Shown here: positions 6,626-64,000 of the stretch, piece by piece
How the letters are laid out: every line of letters begins with the position of its first letter
Position numbering within the stretch: position 1 is the first letter of the stretch
From: an uncultured Eubacteriales bacterium
GTDB taxonomy: Bacteria; Bacillota; Clostridia; Oscillospirales; CAG-272
Direction of reading: 5' to 3'
Assembly: GCA_934373635.1 (NCBI GenBank)
Contig: CAKROZ010000002.1
Location: 123,540 to 187,539 of the forward strand
Length of the DNA: 64,000 nucleotides
Made by a program: the position numbers and the translations under genes
Notes under the pieces: model-generated
What the model saw: only the letters and a program-made list of their open reading frames with translations
What the model was told of the DNA's origin: nothing
The model's database searches: none

Positions 6626-6671
6626 GCTGTTTTCCGATCGTCCCTTCTTCGGGTCGCGCGACCTTCCTTTA

Positions 6672-22803: not shown

Positions 22804-23078
22804 GGCAGTCTCCTTGTGCACCCCCGAGGGGGAGATGTATATAAGTATATATATATTATATCATTCTGTTTTTCAAAAATCAACTTGGCAATATGGCAAA
22901 AAATCGGCAAAAAATTTGTTGCATTTGCACAATAAAAGTAACAGTTCGAAACATCAGAAAACTTGCAAAGACGCTCTGTGGTAACAAAAATATCCGACGG
23001 AAGTTCTTTCACAAAAGGCAAGGAGCAAACAGCCACCCGATGCGAAGGAGCGATATACGAGGCGACCTCACCGCAGGG

Positions 23079-23930: not shown

Positions 23931-24041
23931 GATTTCCTCGCATTTGTTATCAAACTATCCGAAGTATAGCACAGATCGGGGAGAAAATCAAGGCACTTTG
24001 CGAAAATCCGCGCGCTTTCGGAAAAATCTTCCCTGCCCCTC

Positions 24042-24070
24042 TTGTTTTTTTGTGTCCGCCGTGCTATACT
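24042..24070 (+). promoter_or_regulatory. SigmaA-type promoter (TTGTTT-17-TATACT) driving the THF riboswitch
   Basis: Read directly. The predicted transcription start lies ~12 nt before the aptamer. Confidence 0.5.
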
Positions 24071-24088
24071 GGTATCAACATTTCAAAA

Positions 24089-24196
24089 GCAGAGTAGGGT
24101 CACGAGCGTGAGTGCCGTGCGGACGGGGAGTTGCCGCACGGACGAATTGGGGAAGCTTTTTTCTTTCCCTGCGGTTCGTCACCCGCATCCCGCTGT
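24089..24196 (+). promoter_or_regulatory. THF (tetrahydrofolate) riboswitch aptamer
   Basis: AGAGUAGGGUCACGAGCGUGAGUGCCGUGCGGACGGGGAGUUGCCGCACGGACGAA...CCCUGCGGUUCGUCACCCGCAUCCCGCU matches the conserved GAGUAG / GCGUnAGUG / GGGA / ACGAA / GCGG / GCAUCCGCU blocks of the folT motif as I recall them. A hairpin with a short U tract (24220-24250) follows. The downstream gene is a folate transporter. Confidence 0.75.
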
Positions 24197-24292
24197 TTCT
24201 CGGTGGCACCTTTCATAAAAAACCGGCGATTTTTTCGTCGGTCTTTTCCCTCCGTGAACAGAGATGAATCTGTCGAAACGGAGGTATTTTTT

Positions 24293-26116: not shown

Positions 26117-26132
26117 CCCTTTTCAAAGTAAA

Positions 26133-26173
26133 AAAACGGCACCTGCGCACCCCGTGACAGGTTGCCGTTTTTG
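26133..26173 (+). terminator. Rho-independent terminator
   Basis: AACGGCACCTG...CAGGTTGCCGTT followed by a T run. Confidence 0.65.
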
Positions 26174-26283
26174 TTAAAATGCTGCTTTTATGATGTGAAG
26201 CGGGAGAGCGGGATTTTTCTTTTCTCATATACTGACGGTGGAGGGATTTTCTCTCCGAGAAAAGAAAAAACAAGGAGTGTTTT

Positions 26284-27138
26284 ATGGCAACCTTCACGAA
26301 TCAGGCTCAGCTCTCCTACGGCGGAAACGTCGTCAACTCCAACATCACGACGGGCGAGATCGTCAGTACGCTCTCCATGACGAAGACCGCGCTCACGCGC
26401 ACGTATCGTCCGGGCGAGAGGATCACCTACGTCCTCTCCGTCGTCAACAGCGGGATCGCCGCCGTCGACGGTGCGACGCTGACCGACGATCTCGGCGCTT
26501 ACACCTTCGGTACGGGGACGCTCGTCCCCCTCACCTATGTGGCGGGGTCTGCCCGCGCGTTCCTCAACGGGGTCCCCGCCGCCGACCCGACGGTCACTGC
26601 GGGTCCTCCGCTCGTGTTCAGCGGTCTCTCGATCCCTGCGGGCGGCAATCTGCTTCTTATCTATGAGGCGGAGGCGAACGAATTCGCACCGCTCGGCACG
26701 GGTGCCGGCACCGTCAATACGGCGACGCTCACCGCGGCGGGTATCACGACCCCCGTCACGGCAACCGAGACCGTCACGCCGAACACGGCGGCAAGCCTTG
26801 CAATCCGCAAGGATATCTCGCCCGTGCCCGTGAACGAAAACGGAACGCTGACTTACACCTTTACTCTGCTCAATTACGGCACGGTCGCCACCGATGCGGC
26901 AGACAATGTGACCCTGACCGACACCTTCAATCCCGCGCTTACGAATCTTGTCGCGACGCTTAACGGTGCGGCACTTGCCGCGACGACCGACTACACCTAC
27001 AACGAGGGAACCGGGCTCTTCGCCACCGTCCCCGGAAGAATCACGATCCCTGCCGCGACCTACGTGCAGAACCCGACGACGGGTGCCTACACGCTCACGC
27101 CCGGGACTGCGACGCTCGTCGTCAGCGGAACCATCTGA
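26284..27138 (+). CDS. DUF11 ('conserved repeat domain') protein without a recognisable signal peptide
   Basis: MATFTNQAQLSYGGNVV..., with two T/V/A/G-rich beta-sandwich-like repeats (LTYTFTLLNYGTVATDA...). AAGGAG precedes the ATG. Confidence 0.6.
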   Translation: MATFTNQAQLSYGGNVVNSNITTGEIVSTLSMTKTALTRTYRPGERITYVLSVVNSGIAAVDGATLTDDLGAYTFGTGTLVPLTYVAGSARAFLNGVPAADPTVTAGPPLVFSGLSIPAGGNLLLIYEAEANEFAPLGTGAGTVNTATLTAAGITTPVTATETVTPNTAASLAIRKDISPVPVNENGTLTYTFTLLNYGTVATDAADNVTLTDTFNPALTNLVATLNGAALAATTDYTYNEGTGLFATVPGRITIPAATYVQNPTTGAYTLTPGTATLVVSGTI

Positions 27139-42270: not shown

Positions 42271-45200
42271 ATGAAGAAGAAAATCCTGTTGTTTCTCGCG
42301 GTGTTATGCCTGCTTCTCGGGTTGACCGCCTGCTCTCTCGTCGGTGCGGATCCCTCGACCTGCGAGCATGTTTACACCAACGAGTGCGACGACACCTGTA
42401 ACAAATGCGGCGCGGTGCGCGAAGCCCCGCACGCATATGAGAACGGTTGCTCCACAAAGTGCCCGAAATGCGGCAAGGAGAGAGTCACCGAGCACAAGTA
42501 CGACAACGACTGCGATCCGACCTGCAACGTCTGCGGTGCGGAGAGAATCGTCGAAGGACACAAGTACGATAACGTGTGCGACGCGGTGTGCAACATCTGC
42601 GGTGCGACGCGCGACGTGCCCGATCATGTCTACGCGACGAAGTGCTCTCCGACCTGCACGGTGTGCGGACACGTCCGTCAGGTCAATCATACATATGCGT
42701 CCGCGTGTGCCGAGAAATGTTCGGTCTGCGGCGAGACGCGCGAACCGACCGTCGCGCACGAGTATTCGAGCGAATGCGACACAACCTGCGACAAGTGCGG
42801 AAAGGTGCGCACGACCGAGGTTGCCCACGAATACTTCGGCGAGTGCGCCACCAAGTGCAAGTGGTGCGGCGAGGTGCGTGCGAATAACACCGCACATCGC
42901 TGGTCGGGCGACTGCGACAGCGAGTGCAACGTCTGCCACGAAACAAGAGAGACCACCGTCGAGCATAACTATGACGGCAAAGACTGCCGCGAGACCTGCA
43001 CGGTCTGCGGTGCGCGCCGCGTGTTTGATCCCGACAAGGAACAGCCGGAGCACACCTACGCCGGTCCCTGCTCTGACAGATGCTCGGTGTGCGGAGAGGC
43101 GCGCGAGGTCATCCCTCACAAGTTCTCCTCCGACTGCGACACGACCTGCGACAACTGCGGTGCCACCCGCACGGGAACGCCCGCGCACACCTTCCTCCAC
43201 GACTGCCAGACGAAGTGCGAGTATTGTGACGGTGTGCGGGAGATGCCCGAGGGAATGAGCCACAATTTCGAGTTCGAATGCTCCGAGTTTTGCTCGGTCT
43301 GCAAAGAGGCGAACCCCGACCACAAGGCTCACGACTACGGCAACCTCCCGAATTGTAACGCGGAGTGCGAGAGATGCGGCGCGACGAGAATTCCCCCGCA
43401 CCGCTATCTGTCCGCCTGCGCGGAATTCTGTGCCGACTGCGGTGCCGAACGTCCCAAGGATCAGATTAAGGAAGAGCACAATTATGGCGACCATGCGTGC
43501 CGGGAAACCTGCCTTAACTGCGGAAAGCATCGCTCCGCCTCGGGGAGTCACAACTATGCCAAACCCTCCTGCGACGAAGAGTGCAGTGTGTGCGGCGAGC
43601 TTCGCGAAGCGCCCCATATTTACTCAAGTGACTGCGACGAGGAATGCAATGTTTGCGGTCACAAGCGCAAGGCTCCGCATGGTCACACCTACTCGGGCGG
43701 TTCCGAGAGTTGTGACACGATCTGTAACGTATGCGGTGCCGAAAGAACCACCAAGACGCCACACATCCGCGAACATGTCTGCGACGACATCTGCAAGGTC
43801 TGCGGTGTAAGCATCGGACAGGAAAAGCCCCACATCTACCCTGCGGGCGAAGTGCGTTGCGATACGAAGTGCACGGTCTGCGGCAAGGAAAAGGGCGATC
43901 ACGTCTACGGCGAGAGCGGTCTTGCCGAGGAGTGCGATACCACCTGTAACGAGTGCGGTGCGGTGCGAGAGGCTCCTCACTCCTATCTGAACGACTGCGC
44001 CACCGACTGTCAGCTCTGCGGACAGCGGACGCGCGAGAATCCTCCTCACAACTTCACCTACCGTTGCCAGACGAAGTGCGCGGATTGCGACTACACACGG
44101 GAAGCGGAGGCACATTCCTTCACCTACGAGTGCGATACCGAATGCCCCGTTTGCCACGAGACGCGCGAGGCGCATCACGAGTACGACAGCAACTGCACGC
44201 AGGAGTGCAAGTTCTGTCACAGAATTACCCGCGCGGCGGAGGACGTTCCTCATGAATTTGCGCATCCCGAGTGCGACGAGGTCTGCCCCACCTGCGGTGC
44301 GCCGAATCTCCACGCCGAGGGGCACGACTACAACGGCAGCCCAAGCTGTGACGCGGTCTGCAAATACTGCGGAAGAAAGCAAGGCAACCACACCTACGGC
44401 GATCCCAACATCGGTCTTGCCCCCGAGTGCGACGATGAGTGCAACGTGTGCGGCGACAAGAGGAAAGCTCCGCACTTCTTCGACCATCCGTGCGACGAGA
44501 CCTGCAAGGAATGCGGTAAGGAAAGACTCGACAGAGACGAGCACAAGTACGCAGATGACTGCACCAAGATCTGCGAGGTCTGCGAAAAAGAGACGAGAGA
44601 GAACCCGCCTCACGTGTTCTCCTCCGACTGTGACGAGACCTGTAACGTGTGTGGCTACGTCCGCAAGGGCGGCAAAGGCGGAGAAAAAAATCCCTCGCCT
44701 CACAACTACATCCACAAGTGTCAGACGCACTGCGAGGACTGTGACCACGTTCGCGAAGCGGCGGAAGTAGATCACACCTACACGGCGGGACGCGAGCTTT
44801 GCGACACGGAGTGCCTTGTCTGCCATGAGACGAGAATTCCTCCTCACAAGTATGCAAGCAACTGCGACGAGAAATGCGATATCTGCCTCAAAGAGAGAAC
44901 CCCGACGGAAGGTCACCACTACATCGAGCCCTGCGGAACCATTTGTACCGAATGTAACCAGAGAAGAGCGAGCGGTACTGCGCACTCCTACGACAAGGAA
45001 TACTGCGACACGCAGTGCAAGATCTGCGGCGAAAGGAGAACCCCGACGCACTTCTACAAGACCGATTGCAGCGAAGAGTGCATGTACTGTGACAACGGTA
45101 AGCGCACGCATCTGAAGGATCACACCTATTCGGGCGACTGCGACGTCGTGTGCAACGAGTGCGGAGAAAAGAGAGTCTTAAACGATCCTCATCACGTATA

Positions 45201-45504
45201 CGACAACGACTGCGATCCGACCTGTAACGTCTGCGGTGAGGAGAGAACACCACAGCCGCACGACTACAAGCACACGTGCTCCGAGATCTGCTCTGTCTGC
45301 GGCTACCACCGCACCGACGGTGCCGATCATAAGTACGGCGATCACAGCTGTGCAACGAAGTGCTCCGTGTGCGGGGAGAAGACGAGAAAAGACCCGCCCG
45401 AAAAGCACAAGGACGACAACAAGGACGGAATCTGCGATGAGTGCGGCGAACGCACTTCCACCGGCGATTCCGGCAACATGACCGAGGAGCATCCCTTCTC
45501 CTGA
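42271..45504 (+). CDS. 1077-aa predicted lipoprotein built of 43 tandem H-x-[YF]...C-x3-C-x2-C modules (unassigned family)
   Basis: The signal peptide MKKKILLFLAVLCLLLGLTAC carries an L-T-A-C lipobox. It is followed by 43 consecutive modules, e.g. HKYDNDCDPTCNVCGAERIVEG, all with exact C-x3-C-x2-C spacing, plus a C-x2-C remnant at the end. The gene has its own promoter and terminator. Confidence 0.85.
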   Translation: MKKKILLFLAVLCLLLGLTACSLVGADPSTCEHVYTNECDDTCNKCGAVREAPHAYENGCSTKCPKCGKERVTEHKYDNDCDPTCNVCGAERIVEGHKYDNVCDAVCNICGATRDVPDHVYATKCSPTCTVCGHVRQVNHTYASACAEKCSVCGETREPTVAHEYSSECDTTCDKCGKVRTTEVAHEYFGECATKCKWCGEVRANNTAHRWSGDCDSECNVCHETRETTVEHNYDGKDCRETCTVCGARRVFDPDKEQPEHTYAGPCSDRCSVCGEAREVIPHKFSSDCDTTCDNCGATRTGTPAHTFLHDCQTKCEYCDGVREMPEGMSHNFEFECSEFCSVCKEANPDHKAHDYGNLPNCNAECERCGATRIPPHRYLSACAEFCADCGAERPKDQIKEEHNYGDHACRETCLNCGKHRSASGSHNYAKPSCDEECSVCGELREAPHIYSSDCDEECNVCGHKRKAPHGHTYSGGSESCDTICNVCGAERTTKTPHIREHVCDDICKVCGVSIGQEKPHIYPAGEVRCDTKCTVCGKEKGDHVYGESGLAEECDTTCNECGAVREAPHSYLNDCATDCQLCGQRTRENPPHNFTYRCQTKCADCDYTREAEAHSFTYECDTECPVCHETREAHHEYDSNCTQECKFCHRITRAAEDVPHEFAHPECDEVCPTCGAPNLHAEGHDYNGSPSCDAVCKYCGRKQGNHTYGDPNIGLAPECDDECNVCGDKRKAPHFFDHPCDETCKECGKERLDRDEHKYADDCTKICEVCEKETRENPPHVFSSDCDETCNVCGYVRKGGKGGEKNPSPHNYIHKCQTHCEDCDHVREAAEVDHTYTAGRELCDTECLVCHETRIPPHKYASNCDEKCDICLKERTPTEGHHYIEPCGTICTECNQRRASGTAHSYDKEYCDTQCKICGERRTPTHFYKTDCSEECMYCDNGKRTHLKDHTYSGDCDVVCNECGEKRVLNDPHHVYDNDCDPTCNVCGEERTPQPHDYKHTCSEICSVCGYHRTDGADHKYGDHSCATKCSVCGEKTRKDPPEKHKDDNKDGICDECGERTSTGDSGNMTEEHPFS
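42367..45405 (+). repeat. Coding tandem repeat: 43 diverged units of ~63-90 nt
   Basis: I segmented the units by hand from the translated sequence. The units have diverged at the DNA level, except for one near-identical pair (42499-42546 and 45199-45246). Confidence 0.85.
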
Positions 45505-51939: not shown

Positions 51940-52161
51940 GTTTTCTTTCCTTCTTTTTTATAGTACCGTTTTCCGCTTTCGCAGTGTTTTTCCGTGTCGG
52001 TACCGTCTCCTCCCCGAAACGGATGCCGTCACTTTCTGTCGTAAAGTCACTTAGCCCGTGAATTTTCGTGAATAAGTAACTTGTTACGTGACTATAATAG
52101 CAGAAGAAAAGTCACTTGTCAAGTGATTTTTCGAAAAAAATAAGAAATTTTCGAAAAACTA

Positions 52162-52190
52162 TTGCACATTGAGTGACTTTATGCTACAAT
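52162..52190 (+). promoter_or_regulatory. SigmaA-type promoter (TTGCAC-17-TACAAT) overlapping GTGACTT operator-like motifs
   Basis: Read directly. Confidence 0.55.
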
Positions 52191-52269
52191 ATATTTTACA
52201 AAGTAACATGATACGTGATTTTTCGACAAAACACGAAGCATCACGACTTCGCACGGAAAGGAGTGTGCT

Positions 52270-52893
52270 ATGCTATCCAATAATCTTCACAAGTTTCGTC
52301 GGCAATCCGGGCTTACCCTTGAGGAGGTCGCCGAAAAGATCGGGACGAGCAAGCAGACCATACACCGATACGAAAACGGTGTCATCTCCAACGTCCCCGC
52401 GGACAAGGTAGAGGCACTCGCCCGCGTGTTCGGTACCACGCCGTCGGAGCTCATGGGCTGGCGGGCGGACGGCGGCTTTTCCTATGAAAATCTCATGCCG
52501 GTCAAAGCAAAAAAGCTTCCGATTCTCGGACGAATTGCCTGCGGAAAGCCGATTTACGCCGAGGAGGAGCATGAAAGCTACGTTTTGAGCGATACGGTGC
52601 CGAACGCGGACTTCTGCCTCAAGGCAGTCGGTGACTCGATGATCGGGGCGCGCATTTACGACGGGGACATCGTCTTCATCCGCTCGCAGGAGAGCGTCGA
52701 CAACGGAGAGATTGCCGCCGTCATCATTGACGACGAGGCGACACTCAAGCGTGTTTATTTTTACCCCGAAAAACAAAAACTGATTCTTTCCCCCGAAAAT
52801 CCGCATTACGAGCCGCTTGTCTACCTTGGCGGGGAGCTCGACCATATCAAGATCATCGGGAAAGCGGTGGCGTTTCAGAGTGTTGTAAGATGA
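52270..52893 (+). CDS. LexA-like repressor: XRE-type HTH fused to an S24 self-cleaving peptidase domain
   Basis: The HTH_3 is LTLEEVAEKIGTSKQTIHRYENG. The S24 core has GDSM (catalytic Ser) and AAVIIDDEATLKRV (Lys). It lacks the canonical LexA winged-helix N-terminus. Confidence 0.75.
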   Translation: MLSNNLHKFRRQSGLTLEEVAEKIGTSKQTIHRYENGVISNVPADKVEALARVFGTTPSELMGWRADGGFSYENLMPVKAKKLPILGRIACGKPIYAEEEHESYVLSDTVPNADFCLKAVGDSMIGARIYDGDIVFIRSQESVDNGEIAAVIIDDEATLKRVYFYPEKQKLILSPENPHYEPLVYLGGELDHIKIIGKAVAFQSVVR

Positions 52894-52897
52894 TTTG

Positions 52898-52918
52898 GAT
52901 AATTATGAATTATGAATT
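52898..52918 (+). repeat. AT-rich heptamer array, copy c (GATAATT ATGAATT ATGAATT)
   Basis: It starts 5 nt after the stop codon and is followed by GGTGCGGAG...GAGAGTTTA, as in copy d. Confidence 0.7.
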
Positions 52919-52956
52919 AGGTGCGGAGTCGGGCGATTGCGGGTTGAGAGTTTATA

Positions 52957-52986
52957 AAAGGCGCGGAGGGGACCGCGCCTTTTTGC
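52957..52986 (+). terminator. Rho-independent terminator
   Basis: AAGGCGCGG-AGGGGA-CCGCGCCTT followed by TTTGCTTTTT. Confidence 0.75.
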
Positions 52987-53110
52987 TTTTTCGGTGATGA
53001 TGGTTGCTTTCGATGTTTTGCGATTTTCTCTTCCCCAACGATTGGCAGAAAGCCGATAAAAAAGCGCAGGGTTCCTTGGAACCTTGCGCTCTTTTGTTTG
53101 TCATTGGGTT

Positions 53111-53142
53111 CTTGCCGTCCCCGGGGGTACGGGGACGGCAAG
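53111..53142. terminator. GC-rich hairpin 5 nt from the stop of the giant gene
   Basis: CTTGCCGTCCCC-N8-GGGGACGGCAAG. A T tract is present only on the plus strand. Confidence 0.55.
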
Positions 53143-53146
53143 GTTT

Positions 53147-56100
53147 TTACAGGTCGGAGGGGGCAATCGGCTTGCCTGCTTTAACATAATCTTCCGCCGA
53201 GGCGGCGTAGGCGTAGAGTCTCGCGGCGAAGTCGGGGATGAAGTCCGCCTTGATACCTACGACGTAGGTATCGAGATCGTAGGAGCCTTTGGCAATGACG
53301 GTCGAACCGTCGGTATCCTTCGCGGTCAGGGTGAGGGGCTTTCTCATATCGGCAACCGACATGGTGACGAGGATGTACGCGTCACCGCCTTCGGTATAGT
53401 TGAAGTTATGGGAGACTTCCTTTCCGCTGTTGTCCGTATAGGAGACCGTCAGTATGCCGCGGAAGTCACTCTTGACACGGAAGGCGAAGGCGGGCGTGTC
53501 GTCAAGGCTCAGGCTCGCGCCGAAGAGGACCTTCGAGAGCGTGCCGAGATCTGCTACCTGTTCGCTGTAGTCCGGCGTTGAGGGCGTTCTGCCTTCGAGG
53601 AGGGCATCCACTCTCGCGGTGTCGCGATCTGCGGCAGGGGTGAAGTAGCAATATGCCGCGCGGATGTAGGCGAGCATATCTACGACGAGCTGTTCCGTCT
53701 CTTTGCTCGGGTCACCCGCGAGGAGCTTCTCCGCGTAAGCACAGACGGAAAGCGTCATGGTCTTCTCATACTCCGTTCCGTCACTCGACTTCGCGGAAAT
53801 CACAAGGGAAATGTCGTTTGCCGCGTCCCTCGGGGTCATATCGGCGTAAGAAATCACGTAGTAGGACTTGCCGTCGCTCAGGGTAACGGTACTGTCGAGC
53901 GTGTATTCCTTGCCACCGAGCGTGACACCCGTAATCACCGTTGCATCCGCGGGGATGTACAGGTTGTAGGTGAAGTTTGCGGTGAGGGTAAGATTCTCCT
54001 TCATGGGAAGCAGGAAGACGAAAGTCGGAGATATCGCAACGTCACCCGTCAGAGGCGTATCGTACCGGTAAATGCCCGTGATGTACTTATCACCCGTCGG
54101 GATCTCGGTATCGTTCGTCGGGATCTCGCCCTTCTTCCAGAGCTCCTTCGTCTCGCTTGTACCGTTCTTCCACGTGACGGTCGCGGTATCCGCGCTCGCG
54201 CAGGTCTCATAGAGAAGTGTGCCGCGATAGGTAGTGTTGAAAATGGTGATCGCCATTTCGGTAGGAGCAACGCGAGCGTAGACCAAATCGTCGGAGGCAA
54301 AGGTCGTGTTGGCAACCTTCGCATCGGTCACGAAGCGACAACCCGCCCCGAAGGTAACGGGAAACTGAGCATGTACGTTGAATTTGCCTGTTTCCGCGAA
54401 GATCAGGGTGTTCTCGATGGTTGCGGTACCCGAGCTTGCCGTTTCGTTGTCCTTATGGTACTCGTCTGTAAGAGCAAAACCGCCTTTGATGTAGATCTCA
54501 CTGTTCTTGATGGTTGCCGTGAAGCCGTTGCCAGAACGTGCGCCGAGGATGGCCTTGACTTCCGACGCGATAAAGCAATTGTCAATTGTCAGTTTTCCGA
54601 TGCTGTGCTTGAATTGGAAGAGACCGGTGTTATCGCTGACATCGGCAAGGTAGGTAATGTTCGAGAAGTACGCCGTACCGTTCAGTACAAGAATTGCACA
54701 CGTGCCCGACAGACGGAAATTCTCCCTGTCGTAGACGGTACCCTTGGCGTCCGTACCGACTTTCAGCGTGGAATTCTCCGACACCATCATCGCAAATCCG
54801 CCCGTATTGGAGCGAAGGTATGCGCCGGGCTTCGAGGAATAGACATACGCGGTCTTGCCGGATGCCACATCGATCAGGTTGCCGCGGCCTTCGACCTTGG
54901 TCGAGGTGGTGTAGGTGTGTCCGTTGATGTCAAGCTCGATACCGTTGCCGTTGAGGTAAAGCTCCGCATTCGGGATGTCGTAGTCGGTGTGCATGATGAC
55001 ACGGGAGGCATCGGTGATGGCTTCCACAGCCTTCTTAAAGGTTGCGAAGTCGGTCTCGGTGTACGCCTCGATCTTTCCGTCGGGGCGAATGACGACAAAA
55101 GACATTCTGACACGATTCACACGCGCGGTCGCTACGATGCCGGCGCCCGCCATGTAATCTTCTACCGCGAGGTTCGTAATGATGCCGCCGTTCATGACGT
55201 AGATCCACTCGCCGTTCGGGATGAAGGCATAGCGATCGTCCGATGTGTCAATGCTTGCGAAAACCACCGGGTTCGCACAGGTGATCGTCGTACCGGGGAG
55301 CCAGTAATCCTTCGAGGACACGGCGCCGCTCTTCCACTCGACGGTGACAACATCGGTCAGCTTCGCCGTGCGGTATGCTACGGTGTAGGTATGCGTCTTG
55401 CCGTTTCCGTCGGTGAAGGTCACCGTCGGTGCGTGAGCCACGCAGAGCTCGTTCCCTGTCGTAAAGCCGGAGGGCATATGAGTGAGTGAAACATTGCCCG
55501 AAAGGTTCAGGATAAAGCTACCCGCTTTTCCTACCGCGGCACCGTAAACAAGGGAGTCGGAGATATTCAGGCTACCCGTGCCCTCATCCGTGCCGACAAA
55601 GGAAGCGTCCATGCTGAGGTAAATTTTACATTTCGATGCCGTCAAATTGCCTGTGCACTCAGACTTCACGTTCATTACGCATCCGTTTGTAAAAATCGTC
55701 GCGTTCTCTAATGTGATATTGACAGAGCCGTAATCATTCATCGCGGTTATCGCACTTTTTACGTAGTAGATCCCACCGTCAACATGAAGATTGTACGTGT
55801 ATATCGTCCCCTGTGACTTGCCATTGTCATAGAGGCGTGCAGCGTATATCGTCAGGTTGTCACCGACGTAAATGTTACCGTCGAGTGCCTTAACGGTACC
55901 GATGTACACGTGACTGCCCCCGCGACTGTAGTTTAGAATGAGATTACCGTCAGCATTAATTGCGGCGCCCTTTTTGCTTGAATAGATATAATAACTTTTC
56001 GTTCCTTTGAAGCTATAAAAATAATTTGACGTCGTTATACTATGTCCGTTTAAATCGATATATATATCGACAACATTTTCTTTATTGCTGGTATTGATGC

Positions 56101-59100
56101 CGACCGTGCCCGTCATATTCCTGCAAAAAGTAACAGTGATTCTCCCGTTTGCTTTGTTGGCGCCCAGTATCTCCAATCGTTTCCCGATTTCAGAAAAGCT
56201 CTCCGAACAGATATACTCTACCGTAGAGAAATAGGAAATGGTAGCGTAAACTTCTTTCTCTCTTTCCCCGATATGGTTCGCCTCGGCATAGATGGTAGCG
56301 CCCTTCAGAGAATCGGGAATCGCATCGAATGTGAGAAGATTACCTTTCGCATCCTTAAAAATCCATTTATCGTCCGTCGAAAAAAGCCAACCTTCAATGA
56401 CAAGCCCATTGCGCGTTGGGACAGTGCCTACAAGCCACTTGCCAATCGTTCCATCCTGCCAGATGACAGTAACAAAATTTCTTTCGAATTCGGTATAGAT
56501 GCTTGAGGTAGCGTCAATAGTCTTACCGAGGAATTTCGTCAGTTCTTCCGAAGGAACGAAATGCGTGGTTTTTGTCATGGTTATCAAACCATCGACAAGT
56601 TTTGTATTCGACGAACCGATTGCGGGAATCAGGCACCCTTCACCGATGACAATGCGTCCCTTCGCACCGGCGACGTTGACGTTACCGTCGTACACTTCGG
56701 TATTTGTCATATAAACCGTGCCCGAAGGGTCGGCACCTGTGGCACCCGGATCTTTTGTTACGAAACTTGCTCCTTTTCCGCCCATATGAATACGGCAATT
56801 CTTTATATGGATTTCCGCACCGTTTGCATTCTGGAAAGAGATAAAGGAACGTGTTGTGTAAATTTCCGCGTTAAGAATTCTGAAATCCTTCAGCCCGGTT
56901 CGTGTAATAATTGGCGCCTTAAAGTCGTTGAGGGTAGCGAAATAATGACCGCCGTCAATCGTAACGGGGTAGTCAAATTCCGAATTGATCAGACAACCAC
57001 CCGACATAGTGAGATTTTCGCCCTTAAAAGTTTTGTCCAGCGTCGGATTATAAACGGTACCGAGGATAAGTTCGCCTTTCATCTTATCAAAGATGGCCGG
57101 AGTTGTTTTATCTTTGGCTGCGTAGCTCTGTTCTTTCCCGTCAATGACAACGGGAACAATGCGCAAGTAACCGCCCTTCTTCGAGGAATAAAGGCGCGTG
57201 GTCGCGGTGATCTGGAATGGAGAATACTTTGCTACGTCGGCATTTCCGTTCGATGTGATTGTATGTCCGTTCAAATCAATGTAAACATTGCCGACACTGA
57301 TCGACGCCTCAACATAGTAATCACAAGCGAAAACAAAGGTTGTGTCATTCCTGGCACCCGTAAGAGCAGCAGGAATCTGTGATTCTTCTTTCAAAACGGT
57401 GACCTTCCCGTCCCTGCTATACAAGTATGCGCAATAGTCCCTCACCGTCTCGCTCTCCGGATAAACATCAAAATGTCTATCGATGTCTGCGGCAGTAACC
57501 TTTGTCAGCGGGATGCCGTGGATGCGGTCACGCACCCATTCCTTAAAGATGTGAAGTGTGCCGTCCGATAATTCCACCGCTGCCGTAAATCCAATGCCCG
57601 GGGAGGGCATCGAGCCATAGAGGGCAGGAACGTCTTTCACAAGGACGGTACCATCCAAGTTATAGAAGGTGTAGTATGCCTTTCTGACCGTTCTCGTGAA
57701 GACGTAAGTGCCGTTGCCCTTATCCTCCGCATCAAACCCCTCATGAGTGAAATCGCCGGTAAATCCGTTCATGACAAGGGTCATCGGACGATCAATGACA
57801 AGCACATTCGTAAGGTTTCGAAGAAGTTCTAAGGTCCCGCCCTCCCGAAGTACTGCGAGTGCCTCGGTGACACTGCCATACTCGACACCGTTCACGCGAG
57901 CCGCGGGCGACTTCGGAAGCTCATACTCAGTGCTCCACATAACGTCACGGTACATCTTCTGATTGAGATTGGTCATCTGATTGTCAAAGAGCTCGGAGAG
58001 AGAACCGTTATACGCCTTATCAAAAGTCTGAAGGGTGACGTTATCAAAGCAGAGCGTCGCGCCCTCGGGATTATTGCTCGCGGGAATGAAGCGGTAATCG
58101 TCGATCTTGACAATCGAAGGATTTCTTATCTCATTCCAGTAGTTTTGGCTCAGCGTAACGATACGTTCCCCGTTGATGAAGAGAGCGGTAGACAAATCGG
58201 TACCCGTTTTCCCCCTTGATTGTGACACGAGGGTGACATGCGCCCATTCTCCCGCGCCAAATTCAACGGATCTGCCACCCATAGAGAGTACCATTTTTCC
58301 GTTCTTGCGTGCAACGGTAAGAAGCGTTGAATAATAAGAGTTACCACCACTGTTTCTGCCAATCTGGTTGAATGATCCTTCCGCAACCACGTCCTCAAAA
58401 GAAATGTCGAATTCAACGGCAAAGTAAGAAAGGTTCTCGAGCATCGACTGACCGAACGGCATCGACATGTAACCTCCGGATCCTTTAGGATTGGAGTTGC
58501 CGGACGCATCAAGTGTAGCATAGTAACGATAATAGCCGTTGCCGTTCGCAAAAGCAATTCCTGACTTGCCGTAAGTTGCATCAGCCCCGCCCGGATGAGA
58601 CATTCCGTCGCTTTCGCAGTCGTTCGAATAAACAATTTTTCCTGTAGTTGGCGCTTTTTTCTCTACATACGAGGGGTAAAGGTCAAAATGAGAATAGATC
58701 TCTCCCGCAGTAACGGCAGTCAGGGGAGATTCACCAAACACCAGCCATTCCTTGAAAACATGATACCCGTTTGCATCATCAAAAACAAGCTGCAATCTCG
58801 TTCCCTCGTAAATCGGAAGGGCACCGATGGGAACGGGAATGTCCTCACCTTCCGGTTCACCGTAGGGACCGTCCGGGTAGAAGGTGAAATACGCAAAGCG
58901 ATCGGTCTTTCGGAAGGAATAAATGGTGTTTCCGTCCCGATCGAAGGTTGACAAAGCGAAATCCCCCGGCTTCCATGTGAATCTGTGGCCGTTGGCATTC
59001 ACGGTAACCGCACTCGTAATTGTCACGTTTGAGGCATCATCGTAAAGCTTTACCTCATAGCCGTCCTTCGCGGCATCAAACGCCGCCTGTACGCTGTCAT

Positions 59101-59950
59101 AGGCGGTCTCATAGCCTGCAAGATTATAAACACCTGCACGCGTCCTGCCATAGGGGAATTTATAGCCTTTGTGATAGGCGACATCGTATTCCGCCTCCTC
59201 GAGAGAATGTTCGTTTCCGTCAAAAAGTCCCGTGAGGTTACCGTCATAATCTTTTCCGTAAATCGCCATCTTTACGTTGTCGATGCACACGGTCGCATCG
59301 CTTACGGCCTGTTTGAAAGACTGAATGCGGAAGCCGACAAGGTTCAGCGACCCTTTATAAAGCACGGACTTCTGTGTAAAAGCGAGCTTTCCGTTCACGT
59401 AAGTCAGAAGAACCGAATTATCCTCTTCAACGACATTCTTATTGTCGACTTTACAATCGATCTGCAAAACGTATGTGATATGTACCCACGAATAGCTATC
59501 GCCGGGAATCTCGAAGGTTTCGTTCGTCGTTATGGCGGTAAGTTGTGCGATACCGTCCGCATTAGACGAAACGGACATGGTATGAGTTCCCCTTGCCGAA
59601 CCACCCTCGCCACGCGTCATAAAGTATAGGTTTGTTCCCTTCCCCGACTCGTAGGTCGTTTCGGTCATCAGGTCGAAGTCAAGCGTCAAATATGCCCACG
59701 TACCATCGAACGCGTCACCCTGCGTTGCTCCGAAGTCATAGTAATTACGCGACGCCGTATAGATGTACGACAAGTAAGAGTTCCCGTCCATTTCGTTGGT
59801 ATGAATTCTGCCGGATGCCGTTTCGCCGGTGTCACAATTGTCATCTATCAGGATTTTCTTTGAGTAATCTGCCGACGAAGCCACCGCAAAGACGCCGCAA
59901 AGCATCGCGAGGACAAGAAACAATATCACAAGTTTGCCCGTTTTTTTCAT
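53147..59950 (-). CDS. 2267-aa secreted modular protein (2x LamG/jelly-roll-like modules, Listeria-Bacteroides-repeat-like units, 3x right-handed beta-helix-like modules, unknown C-terminal region)
   Basis: The signal peptide is MKKTGKLVILFLVLAMLCGVFAVASSA, preceded by GAGGAG. Duplicated N-terminal modules end in CIDNVKMAIYGKDYDGNLTGLFDG and CFDNVTLQTFDKAYNGSLSELFDN. Three modules open with VYIDLNGHTIT (~57286), IYIDLNGHSIT (~56072) and IELDINGHTYT (~54950). I see no LPXTG, SLH or choline-binding motif. Confidence 0.8.
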   Translation of the reverse strand: MKKTGKLVILFLVLAMLCGVFAVASSADYSKKILIDDNCDTGETASGRIHTNEMDGNSYLSYIYTASRNYYDFGATQGDAFDGTWAYLTLDFDLMTETTYESGKGTNLYFMTRGEGGSARGTHTMSVSSNADGIAQLTAITTNETFEIPGDSYSWVHITYVLQIDCKVDNKNVVEEDNSVLLTYVNGKLAFTQKSVLYKGSLNLVGFRIQSFKQAVSDATVCIDNVKMAIYGKDYDGNLTGLFDGNEHSLEEAEYDVAYHKGYKFPYGRTRAGVYNLAGYETAYDSVQAAFDAAKDGYEVKLYDDASNVTITSAVTVNANGHRFTWKPGDFALSTFDRDGNTIYSFRKTDRFAYFTFYPDGPYGEPEGEDIPVPIGALPIYEGTRLQLVFDDANGYHVFKEWLVFGESPLTAVTAGEIYSHFDLYPSYVEKKAPTTGKIVYSNDCESDGMSHPGGADATYGKSGIAFANGNGYYRYYATLDASGNSNPKGSGGYMSMPFGQSMLENLSYFAVEFDISFEDVVAEGSFNQIGRNSGGNSYYSTLLTVARKNGKMVLSMGGRSVEFGAGEWAHVTLVSQSRGKTGTDLSTALFINGERIVTLSQNYWNEIRNPSIVKIDDYRFIPASNNPEGATLCFDNVTLQTFDKAYNGSLSELFDNQMTNLNQKMYRDVMWSTEYELPKSPAARVNGVEYGSVTEALAVLREGGTLELLRNLTNVLVIDRPMTLVMNGFTGDFTHEGFDAEDKGNGTYVFTRTVRKAYYTFYNLDGTVLVKDVPALYGSMPSPGIGFTAAVELSDGTLHIFKEWVRDRIHGIPLTKVTAADIDRHFDVYPESETVRDYCAYLYSRDGKVTVLKEESQIPAALTGARNDTTFVFACDYYVEASISVGNVYIDLNGHTITSNGNADVAKYSPFQITATTRLYSSKKGGYLRIVPVVIDGKEQSYAAKDKTTPAIFDKMKGELILGTVYNPTLDKTFKGENLTMSGGCLINSEFDYPVTIDGGHYFATLNDFKAPIITRTGLKDFRILNAEIYTTRSFISFQNANGAEIHIKNCRIHMGGKGASFVTKDPGATGADPSGTVYMTNTEVYDGNVNVAGAKGRIVIGEGCLIPAIGSSNTKLVDGLITMTKTTHFVPSEELTKFLGKTIDATSSIYTEFERNFVTVIWQDGTIGKWLVGTVPTRNGLVIEGWLFSTDDKWIFKDAKGNLLTFDAIPDSLKGATIYAEANHIGEREKEVYATISYFSTVEYICSESFSEIGKRLEILGANKANGRITVTFCRNMTGTVGINTSNKENVVDIYIDLNGHSITTSNYFYSFKGTKSYYIYSSKKGAAINADGNLILNYSRGGSHVYIGTVKALDGNIYVGDNLTIYAARLYDNGKSQGTIYTYNLHVDGGIYYVKSAITAMNDYGSVNITLENATIFTNGCVMNVKSECTGNLTASKCKIYLSMDASFVGTDEGTGSLNISDSLVYGAAVGKAGSFILNLSGNVSLTHMPSGFTTGNELCVAHAPTVTFTDGNGKTHTYTVAYRTAKLTDVVTVEWKSGAVSSKDYWLPGTTITCANPVVFASIDTSDDRYAFIPNGEWIYVMNGGIITNLAVEDYMAGAGIVATARVNRVRMSFVVIRPDGKIEAYTETDFATFKKAVEAITDASRVIMHTDYDIPNAELYLNGNGIELDINGHTYTTSTKVEGRGNLIDVASGKTAYVYSSKPGAYLRSNTGGFAMMVSENSTLKVGTDAKGTVYDRENFRLSGTCAILVLNGTAYFSNITYLADVSDNTGLFQFKHSIGKLTIDNCFIASEVKAILGARSGNGFTATIKNSEIYIKGGFALTDEYHKDNETASSGTATIENTLIFAETGKFNVHAQFPVTFGAGCRFVTDAKVANTTFASDDLVYARVAPTEMAITIFNTTYRGTLLYETCASADTATVTWKNGTSETKELWKKGEIPTNDTEIPTGDKYITGIYRYDTPLTGDVAISPTFVFLLPMKENLTLTANFTYNLYIPADATVITGVTLGGKEYTLDSTVTLSDGKSYYVISYADMTPRDAANDISLVISAKSSDGTEYEKTMTLSVCAYAEKLLAGDPSKETEQLVVDMLAYIRAAYCYFTPAADRDTARVDALLEGRTPSTPDYSEQVADLGTLSKVLFGASLSLDDTPAFAFRVKSDFRGILTVSYTDNSGKEVSHNFNYTEGGDAYILVTMSVADMRKPLTLTAKDTDGSTVIAKGSYDLDTYVVGIKADFIPDFAARLYAYAASAEDYVKAGKPIAPSDL

Positions 59951-60131
59951 AAATCTCTCCTCTTCATAGAAAAATTCATCTATTTGCCCTATTTGCCACC
60001 GTACCGAAGACGTCTTCTTCGAGAAAGCGGCAGACTTATAGTTTTATATATATTATAGCAGATATAAAAAGAAAATTCCATAGGCAAAAGGACGATTTTC
60101 GCTCGCGTTTTATATGCAAAATATACAAAAG

Positions 60132-60152
60132 AAGAATTATGAATTAAGAATT
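60132..60152 (+). repeat. AT-rich heptamer array, copy d (AAGAATT ATGAATT AAGAATT); left arm of a 20-bp inverted repeat
   Basis: Read directly. Positions 60133-60152 are the exact reverse complement of 60327-60346. Confidence 0.8.
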
Positions 60153-60326
60153 GGTGCGGGGCTATGCGAGAGTTTACGGACGAGGGGTCGGCTTTTTTCA
60201 GGTTCACTTTGCAAAGAAAAAAAAAGAGCGTCGCTTTCGCTTCGCTCTTTTTTCGCTATTTTGTGAGGGGTCGGAGAATTCTTTCGAAGCCTTCTCGGCT
60301 TTCGAGCGGCGCAATGTCTCGCGCCA

Positions 60327-60361
60327 AATTCTTAATTCATAATTCTGAATTCTGAATTATC
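60327..60361 (-). repeat. AT-rich heptamer array, copy e (inverted orientation; five units), right arm of the inverted repeat
   Basis: The plus strand reads AATTCTT AATTCAT AATTCTG AATTCTG AATTATC. The array ends 4 nt from the GH88 stop codon. Confidence 0.8.
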
Positions 60362-60364
60362 CCC

Positions 60365-61528
60365 TTACCAGATGAAGAAAGTCTCTCCGAGGAGCTTCAG
60401 AATGGCTTCGGTATAAAAGAAGTCGGCGTAGATAAGGTTCACGTGCACGCCCGCTTTTTCTTCCGACATGCCGGCCGGATAACGAATCGTACCATAACGA
60501 AGAACGCAATCGTTTGCAACGTCAAAGTTTGCAAAGCGATCGGTCATGGCGTGAAGGAGGTTCAATGCGGCGTGCATGTACATGCCGCCCTCGCCCTCGG
60601 GAAGGAGTCTCGCGAGCTCGAGCAGACCGCAGGCGGCGCAGGCGCCCGCCGTGGAGTCGTAATAGACGGGTTCTGCAGGAGCACGGAAGTCGACGCGGGG
60701 GAGCCAATCGTCACAGCAGTTCGCGATGAAGTAATGGGCAACGCGCTTCGCGGTATCGAGGTACTTCTCTTCCCCGGTATGGATGTAAGAGATGACGAAG
60801 CCGTAGAGCGCCCATGCCTGGCCACGCGACCACGAGGAACCGACAGCGCATCCCTGTCCGCCATAGGTGGCGACAACATCGCCCGTGTCTCTGTCATGTT
60901 CTACGATATGAACAACCGAACCGTCCGGACGGATATGCGTGCGCATCGCGTTATCGGCATGTGCCATGGCAATGCGCTTGAAGCGGTCGTCCTGAATTTC
61001 CTCGGAAGCAAAATAGAGAAGCGGGAGGTTCATCATGCAGTCGATGATCGTCCAGTTCTCGGTTTTTTTGTCTCCGAAATCCCATGCGCGGATATAGTCG
61101 CCGCCAAGAACGAAACGGGAAGCGAGGGTTGCCGCCGCGAACATTTCACGAGTACGAGAAGCCTTGTCTCCGGTCAGACGATAGGAAGCGCCCGACATGA
61201 GATGCCAAAGGAAGCCGACGTCATGATTCAAGCGATTATACTGTGCGAGGGCAACGTCCATCTTCTCTTCAATACGACGCGCGGTTTTCAAGTATTCTTC
61301 GTTCTTCGTATGGTTGTAGAGCATGTAGTTCATGCCGGCATAAAAGCCTGCCGTCCAGTCGTTCGGATAGGTCTCCGTCACGTCGTTATGGATTCCGTTC
61401 TCATCGGCAACAGTGGGAATCTTGTCGCGGGAGCGGACTGCCGTGGCGGCGAATTTTTTGTCAAGTTTTTCGAATATGTCTTTTGCCCACGCGGCGTTTT
61501 CATTCAAAAGCTGCTGATAATTTTTCAT
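60365..61528 (-). CDS. Glycoside hydrolase family 88 (unsaturated glucuronyl/rhamnogalacturonyl hydrolase)
   Basis: ATG 61528 follows AAAGGA. DWTAGFYAGM, HDVGFLW and SRGQAWALYGF are GH88 motifs. The 523-aa track ORF extends spuriously into kduD. Confidence 0.8.
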   Translation of the reverse strand: MKNYQQLLNENAAWAKDIFEKLDKKFAATAVRSRDKIPTVADENGIHNDVTETYPNDWTAGFYAGMNYMLYNHTKNEEYLKTARRIEEKMDVALAQYNRLNHDVGFLWHLMSGASYRLTGDKASRTREMFAAATLASRFVLGGDYIRAWDFGDKKTENWTIIDCMMNLPLLYFASEEIQDDRFKRIAMAHADNAMRTHIRPDGSVVHIVEHDRDTGDVVATYGGQGCAVGSSWSRGQAWALYGFVISYIHTGEEKYLDTAKRVAHYFIANCCDDWLPRVDFRAPAEPVYYDSTAGACAACGLLELARLLPEGEGGMYMHAALNLLHAMTDRFANFDVANDCVLRYGTIRYPAGMSEEKAGVHVNLIYADFFYTEAILKLLGETFFIW

Positions 61529-62450: not shown

Positions 62451-64000
62451 TCAGCGAAGCTCCTTGGTCTCGATATGATCCATATCGTCAAACTCCTGAT
62501 TTTCGCCGCACATTGCCCAGATGAAGGAATAATTCTTCGTGCCGACGCCGCTGTGGATCGACCACGAGGGAGAGATCACCGCCTCCTCGTTGTGCATGAG
62601 GATATGGCGGGTCTCCTTCGGCTCGCCCATCATATGGAAGACGGCATCGTTCGGTCCCATGTCGAGGTAAAGATAGACCTCCATGCGGCGGTCATGGGTA
62701 TGGCAGGGCATGGTATTCCAGTTCGAGCCGACCTCAAGTTGTGTCAGACCCATGGCGAGCTGACAGGACTGCATGACCTCGGGATGGATGTACTGGTTGA
62801 TGACTCTCTTGTTGCAATCCTCGACCGAGCCGCAGGGCACCTTGCGCGCCTTGGTGATGTCGATCTTGACGGTGGGGTACTCTTTATGTGCGGGGCAGGA
62901 GGTGATGTAGAATTTCGCGGGGTTCGTCTCATCGACACTGCGGAAGCGGAGGTCACGATGACCGCGCCCGACGTAAATGCCGTCGCGGGGATTCATCTCA
63001 TAGGTTTCGCCGTCGACGGTAATGACGCCGGCGCCGCCGATGTTGATGCAACCGAGCTCGCGGCGCTCGAGGAAGTAATCCGCGGCAAGCTCCTTGCCCG
63101 CCTCGAGCTTCAGCTCAAGCTTCACGGGCATCATACCGATCACGATGATGCGGTCGGTGTGGCTGTAGACCATGCGGATATTGTCCTTTGTAAAGAGGTT
63201 CGCGATGTGGAATTCCTCTCTCAGTCTGTCGGTGGTATAGTATTTTACGTCCTTTGCATTGGATGCGTCTCTGACTTCCATGCCTTTTTTCTCCTCTTTG
63301 ATATAATTTCCGTAAATTTCGATCTGTGACAGGGCGGCAAAGGACAAAGAGCCGTCCTCAAGCCGCATCTGACGGAAGGCGGTGAGCTTCACCGTTCTCG
63401 TCTTTTTCTTCGGGAATTCGAAGGTCTGCCCTTCCTTTGTCCCGAGGAGGGTCAGGGGGATGCGCGACTTGTCCGAAAACTCGAGCGCCGCCTCCTTCCA
63501 ATAGGTATCGTGGGGAAAATCCGCGCGAAGGTAGATCGTGACGTGTGAGACCTCGACCTCGCGACCGAAGTCGACCTCGTATTCAAGATCCTCGCGGAGT
63601 CCGCCGCCCCACGAATGGTAGGGGTAGTTCCCGTGTCCCGTGTTCTCGGTGATGCCATCGATGGCATTGCGCTCGAAGAAGCAGGGATCCTCACGCGTGA
63701 CGAAGTTTGCCACGGCGTGGGGAAAATATTTCGCGACGTTGTGGCGGTCATGCGAGTTTAAGGAGATCAGGCGTTCCCCGTAGATCTCGGCATCGGAGAG
63801 CTCCCATGCCCGCACGCGATGATCCGCCCCGTCGAAGGTCCCGGGGGCATAGCACGCCACCCGTTCACGGTCAAAGGGAATCTCAAACTCGAATACACCG
63901 TCGGGAAGATAGACAACGGAGGGGGCAAGCGTCTCGGCAAACGCGAGCTTCACAAACTCGGCGCCGTCCGTCTCGAGACGGAGGCGGTCGCCGTGCTCGT
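62451..64000 (-). CDS. kduI: 5-dehydro-4-deoxy-D-glucuronate isomerase (KduI) fused in frame to an upstream discoidin/F5-8-type-C-like domain; N-terminus lies beyond the right edge
   Basis: The region 62451-63281 (MEVRDASNAKDV...WNTMPCHTHDRRMEVYLY...ISPSWSIHSGVGT) aligns along its full length with E. coli KduI as I recall it. The frame stays open upstream through NAIDGITENTGHGNYPYHSWGGG...VDFGREVEVSHVTIYLRAD to base 64000. An internal GAGGAG lies 9 nt before ATG 63281. Confidence 0.8.
   Translation of the reverse strand, partial: EHGDRLRLETDGAEFVKLAFAETLAPSVVYLPDGVFEFEIPFDRERVACYAPGTFDGADHRVRAWELSDAEIYGERLISLNSHDRHNVAKYFPHAVANFVTREDPCFFERNAIDGITENTGHGNYPYHSWGGGLREDLEYEVDFGREVEVSHVTIYLRADFPHDTYWKEAALEFSDKSRIPLTLLGTKEGQTFEFPKKKTRTVKLTAFRQMRLEDGSLSFAALSQIEIYGNYIKEEKKGMEVRDASNAKDVKYYTTDRLREEFHIANLFTKDNIRMVYSHTDRIIVIGMMPVKLELKLEAGKELAADYFLERRELGCINIGGAGVITVDGETYEMNPRDGIYVGRGHRDLRFRSVDETNPAKFYITSCPAHKEYPTVKIDITKARKVPCGSVEDCNKRVINQYIHPEVMQSCQLAMGLTQLEVGSNWNTMPCHTHDRRMEVYLYLDMGPNDAVFHMMGEPKETRHILMHNEEAVISPSWSIHSGVGTKNYSFIWAMCGENQEFDDMDHIETKELR

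Follow-up and report, generated by a model that had tools for sequence, protein, structure and literature searches.

Cassette types of the Clostridioides difficile protein SlpA combine a conserved wall-binding part with a variable exposed part and have a role as phage receptors (PMC10100898). In Ruminococcus albus, a wide variety of enzymes are held at the cell surface by CBM37, a lineage-specific C-terminal module (PMC4081043). Here we describe a locus that can be compared with both systems. It was found in 64,000 nucleotides (nt) of contig CAKROZ010000002.1 from an uncultured Eubacteriales bacterium; this whole stretch is called the window below. The longest open reading frame (ORF) of the window starts with ATG and encodes 2267 amino acids (aa), as compared to 1077 aa for the runner-up. 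Several lines of evidence support the conclusion that the product of this giant gene is a secreted modular protein. Alleles of the gene are highly divergent between conserved flanks, with evidence of recombination. The interpretation that the giant protein is a surface-displayed, glycan-binding fibre that recombination has diversified in response to pressure on exposed structures has in our judgement about an even chance of being correct. Large modular surface proteins are familiar in Gram-positive bacteria, but every module of this one falls outside curated families, and its hosts belong to the uncultured gut Clostridia, a group with a hardly explored surface biology.

Modular architecture of the giant protein

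The protein consists of a signal peptide followed by two A modules, three B modules and a C-terminal module C (Table 1). A search of 5.8 billion proteins produced only eight full-length relatives (2254-2271 aa, 50-100% identical), none of which has a precomputed Pfam domain. In a scan with one genome per species, relatives were observed in three metagenome-assembled genomes. These are labelled Clostridia; one is labelled Coriobacteriaceae and is probably mis-binned. Pfam and NCBIfam searches gave nothing above noise for the whole protein, the separated modules, the small beta units, the C region or the relatives bearing A or B modules, and no known full-length family was returned by the domain searches. 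A sequence search of the PDB with three profiles gave chance-level matches only. No second gene bearing an A, B or C module was found when hidden Markov models (HMMs) of the modules were compared with the window and the related loci.

The N-terminus, MKKTGKLVILFLVLAMLCGVFAVASSA followed after the predicted cleavage site by DY, has the n-, h- and c-regions and the AxA site of a Sec signal peptide. Residues 1-7 and 25-29 of the protein are invariant among the orthologues (n=8). The signal peptide is the sole hydrophobic segment, as the maximum Kyte-Doolittle score of a 19-mer elsewhere is 1.2. There is no LPXTG motif near the C-terminus and no C-terminal transmembrane segment, and the Pfam and NCBIfam scans revealed no match to SLH, CWB2, choline-binding, LysM, GW, WxL or Cu_amine_oxidN1 domains. 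An earlier annotation made by inspection of the letters (below, the sequence-only reading) had described the largest gene of the window, encoding a protein with a Sec signal peptide and internal duplications and without an LPXTG, SLH, cell-wall-binding or transmembrane anchor, and all this is borne out. In particular, BLASTP and HMM cross-matches between the duplicated modules are far beyond chance, and the quoted motifs C[IF]DNV...Y[DN]G[NS]L..LFD, Y[FY]TFY...FKEW and [IL]D[LI]NGH[TS][IY]T are all present as written. Three other candidate interpretations were considered and rejected: a lipoprotein, given the Leu at position -1 of the Cys; a dockerin or cohesin protein, as there are neither Ca-binding repeats nor a Pfam match; and a pseudogene, since the ORF is intact in eight lineages with the ratio of nonsynonymous to synonymous substitution rates (dN/dS) at 0.1-0.3.

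Module A1 is predicted to start with a jelly roll of the ConA/LamG type (aa ~28-245), which is joined through a short alpha/beta linker, bearing a VNANGH turn, to a small beta unit with the YFTFY...FKEW motif. A2 is similar to A1 with BLASTP E 4e-13, and profile HMMs built from the orthologues of the two modules cross-match at E 1e-25 to 1e-39. Structural models were built with AlphaFold2 from eight-sequence alignments; that of aa 28-837 has a mean predicted local distance difference test (pLDDT) score of 76. Comparison of this model with the PDB by Foldseek yielded 293 matches at E<=1e-3. Among them, at E 1e-5 to 7e-8, are the lectin wings of the V. cholerae neuraminidase, neurexin LNS, laminin LG, clostridial neurotoxin Hc, calreticulin and a legume lectin, and the best compact match is the jelly-roll alginate lyase Aly36B, with a template modelling (TM) score of 0.47-0.49 on the target. 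The models thus support the assignment of both A modules to ConA/LamG-like jelly rolls, as proposed in the sequence-only reading, and their most likely role would be glycan binding. Laminin_G_3 of Pfam matches neither the giant protein nor its A-bearing relatives, and the only Pfam match at E<=1 is a weak one to Ybfg_C (E 0.045; 14 bits, cut-off 27). The small beta units had also been likened to Listeria-Bacteroides repeats. This resemblance is not confirmed: five units compared with Flg_new, Flg_new_2 and all other Pfam families gave no match at E<=1, and the whole protein was negative as well.

The B modules are mutually 19-25% identical, and their HMMs cross-match at E 1e-6 to 1e-25. The model of aa 1616-2267 has a mean pLDDT of 69, with values of 80-95 in B3 (model residues 1-325) and mostly below 60 in the C region. 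In this model B3 consists of an alpha/beta cap, a right-handed beta-helix of ~8 rungs with a regular three-strand pattern, and a four-stranded beta unit. Foldseek comparison of B3 with a library of viral structures gave probabilities up to 1.00. The top matches are a Leuconostoc phage protein with a rhamnogalacturonase/pectate-lyase domain and phi29-type pre-neck appendage proteins, followed by pectate-lyase-superfamily proteins, exopolysaccharide (EPS) depolymerases and tailspikes. The matches in the PDB are weak (polygalacturonase, E 0.048). Since the rung pattern of the model agrees with the viral fold matches, we accept B3 as a predicted pectate-lyase-like right-handed beta-helix, and B1 and B2 are assigned to the same fold as its paralogues by HMM homology. 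This is in line with the sequence-only reading, which had suggested beta-helix folds for three modules of ~400 aa. B1, which is the best conserved of the three, has an N-terminal cap, the DLNGH and YSSKKGG motifs, the predicted beta-helix and a C-terminal small beta unit.

The C module is a tandem repeat of a ~125-aa unit, in which a beta-sandwich is followed by an aromatic-rich helix (L..AL..Y...A..Y), in agreement with the secondary structure of the model. The units C1 and C2 match each other with hhalign probability 96.7% (E 3.8e-10). A HMMER search with a B2+B3+C profile against 1.84 billion cluster representatives gave at least 448 representatives at E<=1e-3, 283 of them at E<=1e-10, and the majority of the matches cover just the last ~275 positions of the profile. 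We then re-scored 157 proteins, that is, 150 matches listed and the other seven orthologues, with an HMM of the C module alone. The module was detected in 141 of the 157, and in 96 of the 141 it ends at most 15 residues from the C-terminus. None of these 141 carriers has an LPXTG motif or a C-terminal transmembrane segment. Signal-peptide-like N-termini were observed in about 100 carriers by a crude rule. The cargo identified by Pfam in 32 carriers is diverse: Hepar_II_III_C lyase, GH95, SASA sialate O-acetylesterase, Polysacc_deac_1, Metallophos, BspA-type LRR_5, Laminin_G_3, Flg_new, F5/8 type C and a sialidase N-domain. No family common to these 32 proteins was found, and no SLH, CWB or Gram_pos_anchor domain.

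The modules are shuffled in the relatives, where the arrangements B-C, B-B-C, A-B-C, A-B-B-C, A-C and three to six B modules in a row occur. Conservation among the orthologues is highest in C, with 63-92% identity; the initial 258 residues of B2 are 36-60% identical. The C region has no match in Pfam, NCBIfam or the PDB, and a scan of metagenome loci with a C-module pattern yielded no confirmed relative. Several short stand-alone C proteins are likely to be truncated calls, as their contigs measure only 1-2 kb. The sequence-only reading could not assign the C-terminal ~400 aa. Indeed, they belong to no known family; however, they are recognisable as a tandem C-terminal module that is widespread and previously undescribed. 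Because the carrier pattern resembles that of shared surface-attachment modules such as CBM37, we propose the C module as the foremost candidate for the attachment device that the protein otherwise seems to lack.

Allelic divergence and the recombination breakpoint

Between near-identical genomes the giant protein is only 50-65% identical, whereas the proteins encoded by the flanking genes are 82-100% identical across sister genomes. In the comparison with the related locus L003, the flanking proteins are 92-100% identical (GroEL 100%, SigF 99%, permease 98%) and the giant protein 65%. At the nucleotide level, identity to L003 is 96-99% in the flanks and 56-83% in most of the giant gene, with 0.90 at its conserved 3' end. 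On the upstream side the identity falls at the stop codon of a GH88-like gene. On the other side the island of divergence includes a convergent LexA-like gene (window 52270-52893, + strand; domains HTH_3 and Peptidase_S24), which is 78-88% identical to its L003 counterpart.

In the 5' part of the gene the matrix of pairwise identities is star-like, with 51-67% for all pairs. Allele P0002 is closest to the window copy in B3 (85%) but to allele P0003 in C (92%). As the nearest neighbours differ between modules, mosaicism is a property of the family. Diversification by a diversity-generating retroelement was considered and ruled out, as the variation spans kilobases and is not adenine-focused.

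The G+C content (GC) of the giant gene is 0.509 against 0.559 in the window, but the gene is not uniform. The 5' 4.5 kb have GC 0.481 and GC at third codon positions (GC3) 0.545; in the 3' 2.3 kb the values are 0.564 and 0.732. For the 41 other ORFs of the window GC3 has a mean of 0.71 and a standard deviation of 0.09, and most lie at 0.70-0.80. GC3 is uniform along the orthologous genes, at 0.71-0.77, and equals that of their flanks; the anomaly is thus specific to the copy in the window. The sequence-only reading had noted that the 5' two-thirds are AT-richer than the surroundings. This holds, although the contrast of 35-50% with 60% was overstated (48% against ~57%), and the atypical composition is confined to one recombinant 5' segment that ends sharply and does not extend to the whole gene. 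There are three more low-GC islands in the window, at 5944-7659, 17425-18705 and 20548-22821. The last one corresponds to a gene on the - strand for a 757-aa protein with a signal peptide (GC 0.48, GC3 0.53), in which neither a Pfam family nor any of the modules A, B and C was recognised.

The closest allele, P0002 (locus L006), has nucleotide identity of 0.60-0.77 to the window copy up to aa ~1500 and 0.80-0.94 beyond. The number of synonymous substitutions per synonymous site (dS, Nei-Gojobori) is 1.8-2.6, that is, saturated, in A1, A2, B1 and early B2, and 0.24-0.38 further on. This step of ~7-fold occurs at aa ~1475-1490, in the same place as the GC3 shift. The maximum chi-square method sets the change of identity (0.67 to 0.87) at 55531 and the change of GC3 (0.54 to 0.73) at 55478, only 53 nt apart. 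The joint shift of dS, GC3 and identity is a recombination breakpoint: on its 5' side the gene has low GC3 and is strongly diverged, and on its 3' side it has host-like GC3 and is close to P0002. In the unsaturated part dN/dS is 0.23-0.34. Hence selection is purifying overall, yet many changes have been accepted. The compositional anomaly in this case reflects allelic recombination in a vertically inherited locus and not a foreign gene, which calls for caution in composition-based scans.

If the giant protein is a recombining surface fibre, it would be exported by the Sec pathway and, after cleavage of the signal peptide, held at the cell envelope by the C module, which would be tagged onto many different secreted enzymes and binding proteins of this bacterial group. 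The three beta-helix modules, each capped and trailed by a small beta unit, would form the extended body, and the two N-terminal jelly rolls would be placed at the far end, where they would most likely bind glycans. The exposed body would be subject to diversifying pressure by phage, host antibody or competitors. Homologous recombination would swap the alleles piece by piece, with the conserved C module and the conserved promoter and signal-peptide region as its anchor points. The window copy would have obtained its 4.5-kb 5' segment from an unsampled allele with lower GC3, and its low G+C content would be explained by this origin.

Several observations weigh against this interpretation. Jelly rolls and beta-helices also serve as catalytic folds, and among single domains A comes closest to an alginate lyase. 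dN/dS below one gives no sign of positive selection at the level of whole modules, and the divergence could be partly due to relaxed constraint. The C part of the model is of low confidence, its fold matches are generic Ig/FnIII domains, and the module is non-terminal in 45 of the 141 carriers; it could instead be carbohydrate-binding, oligomerisation- or secretion-related. Finally, every relative is a metagenomic protein with no informative annotation.

A further proposal, which we consider possible rather than probable, is that the C module is a new cell-envelope anchor or sorting device of this lineage of uncultured gut Clostridia. It would display dozens of enzymes and adhesins, with the giant protein as its chief client, a major surface antigen or phage receptor whose serotype-like variants would be shuffled by recombination. 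If the C module proves to be an anchor, it would provide a sequence handle for the displayed proteome, including carbohydrate-active enzymes (CAZymes) and adhesins, and a portable tag for surface display. The hypervariability and the mapped breakpoint mark the locus as a likely phage or antibody target and a useful marker for metagenomic strain typing.

Gene neighbourhood, expression signals and alternative explanations

The order of genes along the direction of transcription is kduI, a short-chain dehydrogenase/reductase (SDR) gene, the GH88-like gene and the giant gene. Downstream of the latter are the LexA-like gene, two small ORFs, spoIIAA/spoIIAB/sigF and groES/groEL. The products of the upstream genes are similar to KduI (E 8e-31) and to SDR/KduD-like enzymes (E 6e-62). 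This adjacency, on the same strand, is observed in all five genomes with upstream DNA. In every relative the giant gene is found at this syntenic position; it is therefore vertically inherited in the clade and not an insertion.

One alternative, which we consider unlikely, is that the giant protein is an extracellular multi-catalytic depolymerase, whose beta-helices or jelly rolls cleave a uronate glycan, so that the GH88-like, KduI and KduD-like enzymes process the unsaturated products. The position of the gene directly 3' of these three genes agrees with such a role. The beta-helix is the fold of the polysaccharide lyase (PL) families PL1/3/6/9 and of the glycoside hydrolase (GH) family GH28, the structural matches include the rhamnogalacturonase/pectate-lyase-domain protein, EPS depolymerases and polygalacturonase in the case of B3 and the alginate lyase Aly36B in the case of A, and the C module is common on CAZymes. 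Moreover, in B1 a series of charged residues, spaced by roughly one rung, is invariant: H1002, D1009, R1017, K1021, E1029, R1034 and E1046. However, no charged constellation is shared by B1-B3 or by 19 B-like modules, in which structural motifs alone are conserved, and no PL, GH or Beta_helix model of Pfam matches the giant protein or its B-bearing relatives at E<=1-10; NCBIfam was negative too. Protein divergence of 35-50% between near-identical genomes would be unusual for a metabolic enzyme, and the catabolic neighbours are 89-99% identical. A heparinase II/III-like lyase encoded ~10 kb upstream of the giant gene in sister genome L002 could serve the pathway instead. The terminator-like hairpin and a separate conserved promoter between the GH88-like and giant genes also argue against a depolymerase, and the synteny is seen among close relatives only.

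The lyase of L002 (positions 1-121) is a 1090-aa protein with Cu_amine_oxidN1 and Hepar_II_III_C domains, running off the locus. It could provide the uronate pathway with an extracellular lyase. The same two domains, combined with a C module, are present in the 1772-aa relative P0025. The GH88-like gene (window 60365-61528, - strand) has a borderline score (27.8 bits, cut-off 26.6) and weaker matches to other families of (alpha/alpha)6-barrels. Its product has no signal peptide and is the least conserved of the catabolic neighbours (89-90% against 92-99%); GC3 of the gene is 0.64-0.65 and that of the L007 orthologue 0.75. The KduI homologues (window 62451-63953, - strand; L002 5995-7641; L007 5814-7460) are 500-548 aa long, with the KduI domain in the C-terminal half only. 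Their N-terminal extension of ~250 aa shows weak similarity to F5/8 type C domains (E 2.7e-4).

The gap between the GH88-like and giant genes is 414 nt long with 40% GC; the terminator-like hairpin and its T-run come first, then the extended -10 element. The ~150 nt preceding the ATG are strongly conserved in seven alleles, with the -10 element, the leader hairpin and the Shine-Dalgarno (SD) box invariant or nearly so. Covariation in the leader is modest, as two pairs are changed on both sides, and the apical part of the stem varies in length among the alleles. The invariant pyrimidine tract UUUUUUCUAU of the leader could pair with the SD box. The leader may be a stability or translational control element; an Rfam scan of 52-61 kb gave nothing meaningful. 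These signals, and the hairpins after the stop codon, suggest that the giant gene is probably transcribed as a separate unit. The case for a functional link to the uronate genes is weakened by this and by the fact that the adjacency is conserved only among very close genomes. Thus the KduI, SDR/KduD-like and GH88-like neighbours pointed out in the sequence-only reading are confirmed, but the link to them is positional.

The same signals would suit a major S-layer-like envelope protein that is also the principal phage receptor, that is, an abundant lattice- or coat-forming protein anchored by C and existing in serotype-like cassettes. Indeed, the gene appears monocistronic, with an invariant strong extended -10 element, a strong SD box, the conserved structured leader of ~95 nt and its own terminator. 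The cassette-like hypervariability between conserved flanks, with the anchor side most conserved, repeats the pattern of SlpA of C. difficile (PMC10100898). There is also a weak Foldseek match to the B. anthracis S-layer protein Sap (E 4e-3), but with a probability of only 0.47 and in the low-confidence part of the model. The size of 250 kDa is large for an S-layer subunit, and lectin domains combined with beta-helices form an adhesin- or fibre-like architecture. Atypical codons in the 5' two-thirds (GC3 0.54 against ~0.75) would be unexpected at very high expression, though they could be recent. On balance we find this explanation even less likely than a depolymerase.

The explanation that the gene is wholly foreign, recently transferred or derived from a phage or plasmid, as its composition might suggest, is very improbable and for the whole gene largely refuted: the 5' 4.5 kb do resemble the three other low-GC islands, and the fold is similar to that of phage appendage proteins, but the slot is syntenic in all relatives, the orthologues and the 3' third of the window copy are host-like in GC3, a tblastn search with residues 1616-2267 (B3+C) of 50,697 phage and 72,556 plasmid records was negative, and no mobility genes adjoin the giant gene.

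Other features of the region were observed as well. Arrays of 7-bp units (AATTCAT, AATTCTT, AATTCAG) in two to four tandem copies occur at window positions 1519-1551, 18635-18667, 52900-52918, 60134-60152 and 60327-60358. They are intergenic, have one orientation, often immediately follow stop codons and are present on both sides of the giant gene; similar arrays were found upstream of the L003 and L005 alleles. A 1077-aa predicted lipoprotein, with a signal ending in LGLTAC, is encoded at 42271-45504 (+ strand). It contains dozens of Cys-rich repeats H.Y.N.CD..C..CG..R and has no Pfam match. In L007, genes for a D12-class methyltransferase and a FokI-like type IIS endonuclease are situated 3' of groEL (23166-26816), where the window has a xanthine/uracil permease gene. 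This restriction-modification system appears to be a strain-specific insertion.

Table 1. Positions of the giant gene, its modules and associated features in the window
Feature	Residues	Position	Strand	Basis
Giant gene, 2267 aa, SP-A1-A2-B1-B2-B3-C (SP, signal peptide)		53147..59950	-	ORF list, translation
Sec signal peptide, predicted cleavage after ASSA	1-27	59870..59950	-	read from sequence
Module A1	28-432	58655..59869	-	AlphaFold2 model, Foldseek against PDB, A1/A2 homology
Module A2, paralogue of A1	433-837	57440..58654	-	homology, AlphaFold2 model, Foldseek
Module B1	838-1232	56255..57439	-	HMM homology to B3 (E 1e-13 to 1e-22), alignment, conservation
Module B2, paralogue of B1 and B3, most variable module	1233-1615	55106..56254	-	alignment, HMM, conservation
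Module B3	1616-1962	54065..55105	-	AlphaFold2 model, Foldseek
C module, candidate surface-retention module	~1975-2260	53171..54028	-	HMMER, hhalign, carrier statistics
C1 unit	~1984-2104	53639-54001	-	hhalign
C2 unit	~2143-2260	53171-53524	-	hhalign
Recombination breakpoint inside B2		55478..55531		maximum chi-square change points, dS
Hypervariable island: giant gene, flanking intergenic DNA, LexA-like gene		52100..60400		sliding nt identity to L003, L007, L002
Terminator-like hairpin and T-run after GH88-like gene		60216..60248	-	sequence
Extended -10 element TGCTATAAT, invariant in 7 alleles		60052..60060	-	sequence, alignment
Conserved ~95-nt leader: CUGCCG...CGGCGG hairpin, pyrimidine tract, GGAGAG/GGGGAG SD box		59951..60046	-	alignment
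Two hairpins 3' of stop codon, the second (53063-53090) followed by TTTTTT on the gene strand		53057..53143	-	sequence

Comparison with known systems

Taken one by one, the modules of the giant protein have recognisable counterparts. The A modules share with the Laminin_G_3/ConA-like domains of bacterial surface proteins the jelly-roll fold, the C-terminal strand motif of the xDNV type and the N-terminal place in a secreted multidomain protein, but are not matched by the Pfam model. The B modules are analogous to pectate-lyase-like beta-helix adhesins and phage appendages, such as the phi29-type appendage, tailspike depolymerases and PF20585 (Pectate_lyase_5), in that a capped right-handed beta-helix is used as an extended surface module. 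On the other hand, the best PF20585 match has E 1.1 and occurs in one of 15 modules, no trimerisation domain was recognised in the giant protein, and three modules follow each other in one protein encoded on a bacterial chromosome.

The C module is similar to CBM37 of R. albus in arrangement. CBM37 is lineage-restricted, as the C module may be too, and both are usually C-terminal, sometimes tandem, and present on diverse glycoside hydrolases, polysaccharide lyases, carbohydrate esterases and non-catalytic proteins. CBM37 attaches enzymes to the cell surface (PMC4081043) and stands in for dockerins or other anchors, and the carriers of the C module likewise have no known anchors. The difference is that the C module is a fixed pair of ~125-aa beta-sandwich-plus-helix units.

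As regards the population pattern, the nearest known parallel is SlpA of C. difficile with its S-layer cassette types (SLCTs). SlpA is anchored by CWB2, cleaved into two subunits, forms a lattice and serves as a phage receptor. The giant protein, in contrast, has no CWB2, is built of lectin jelly rolls and beta-helices and has a size of 250 kDa. What the two systems share is a conserved chromosomal slot occupied by divergent recombining alleles, in which the wall-proximal part of the protein is conserved and the exposed part is variable.

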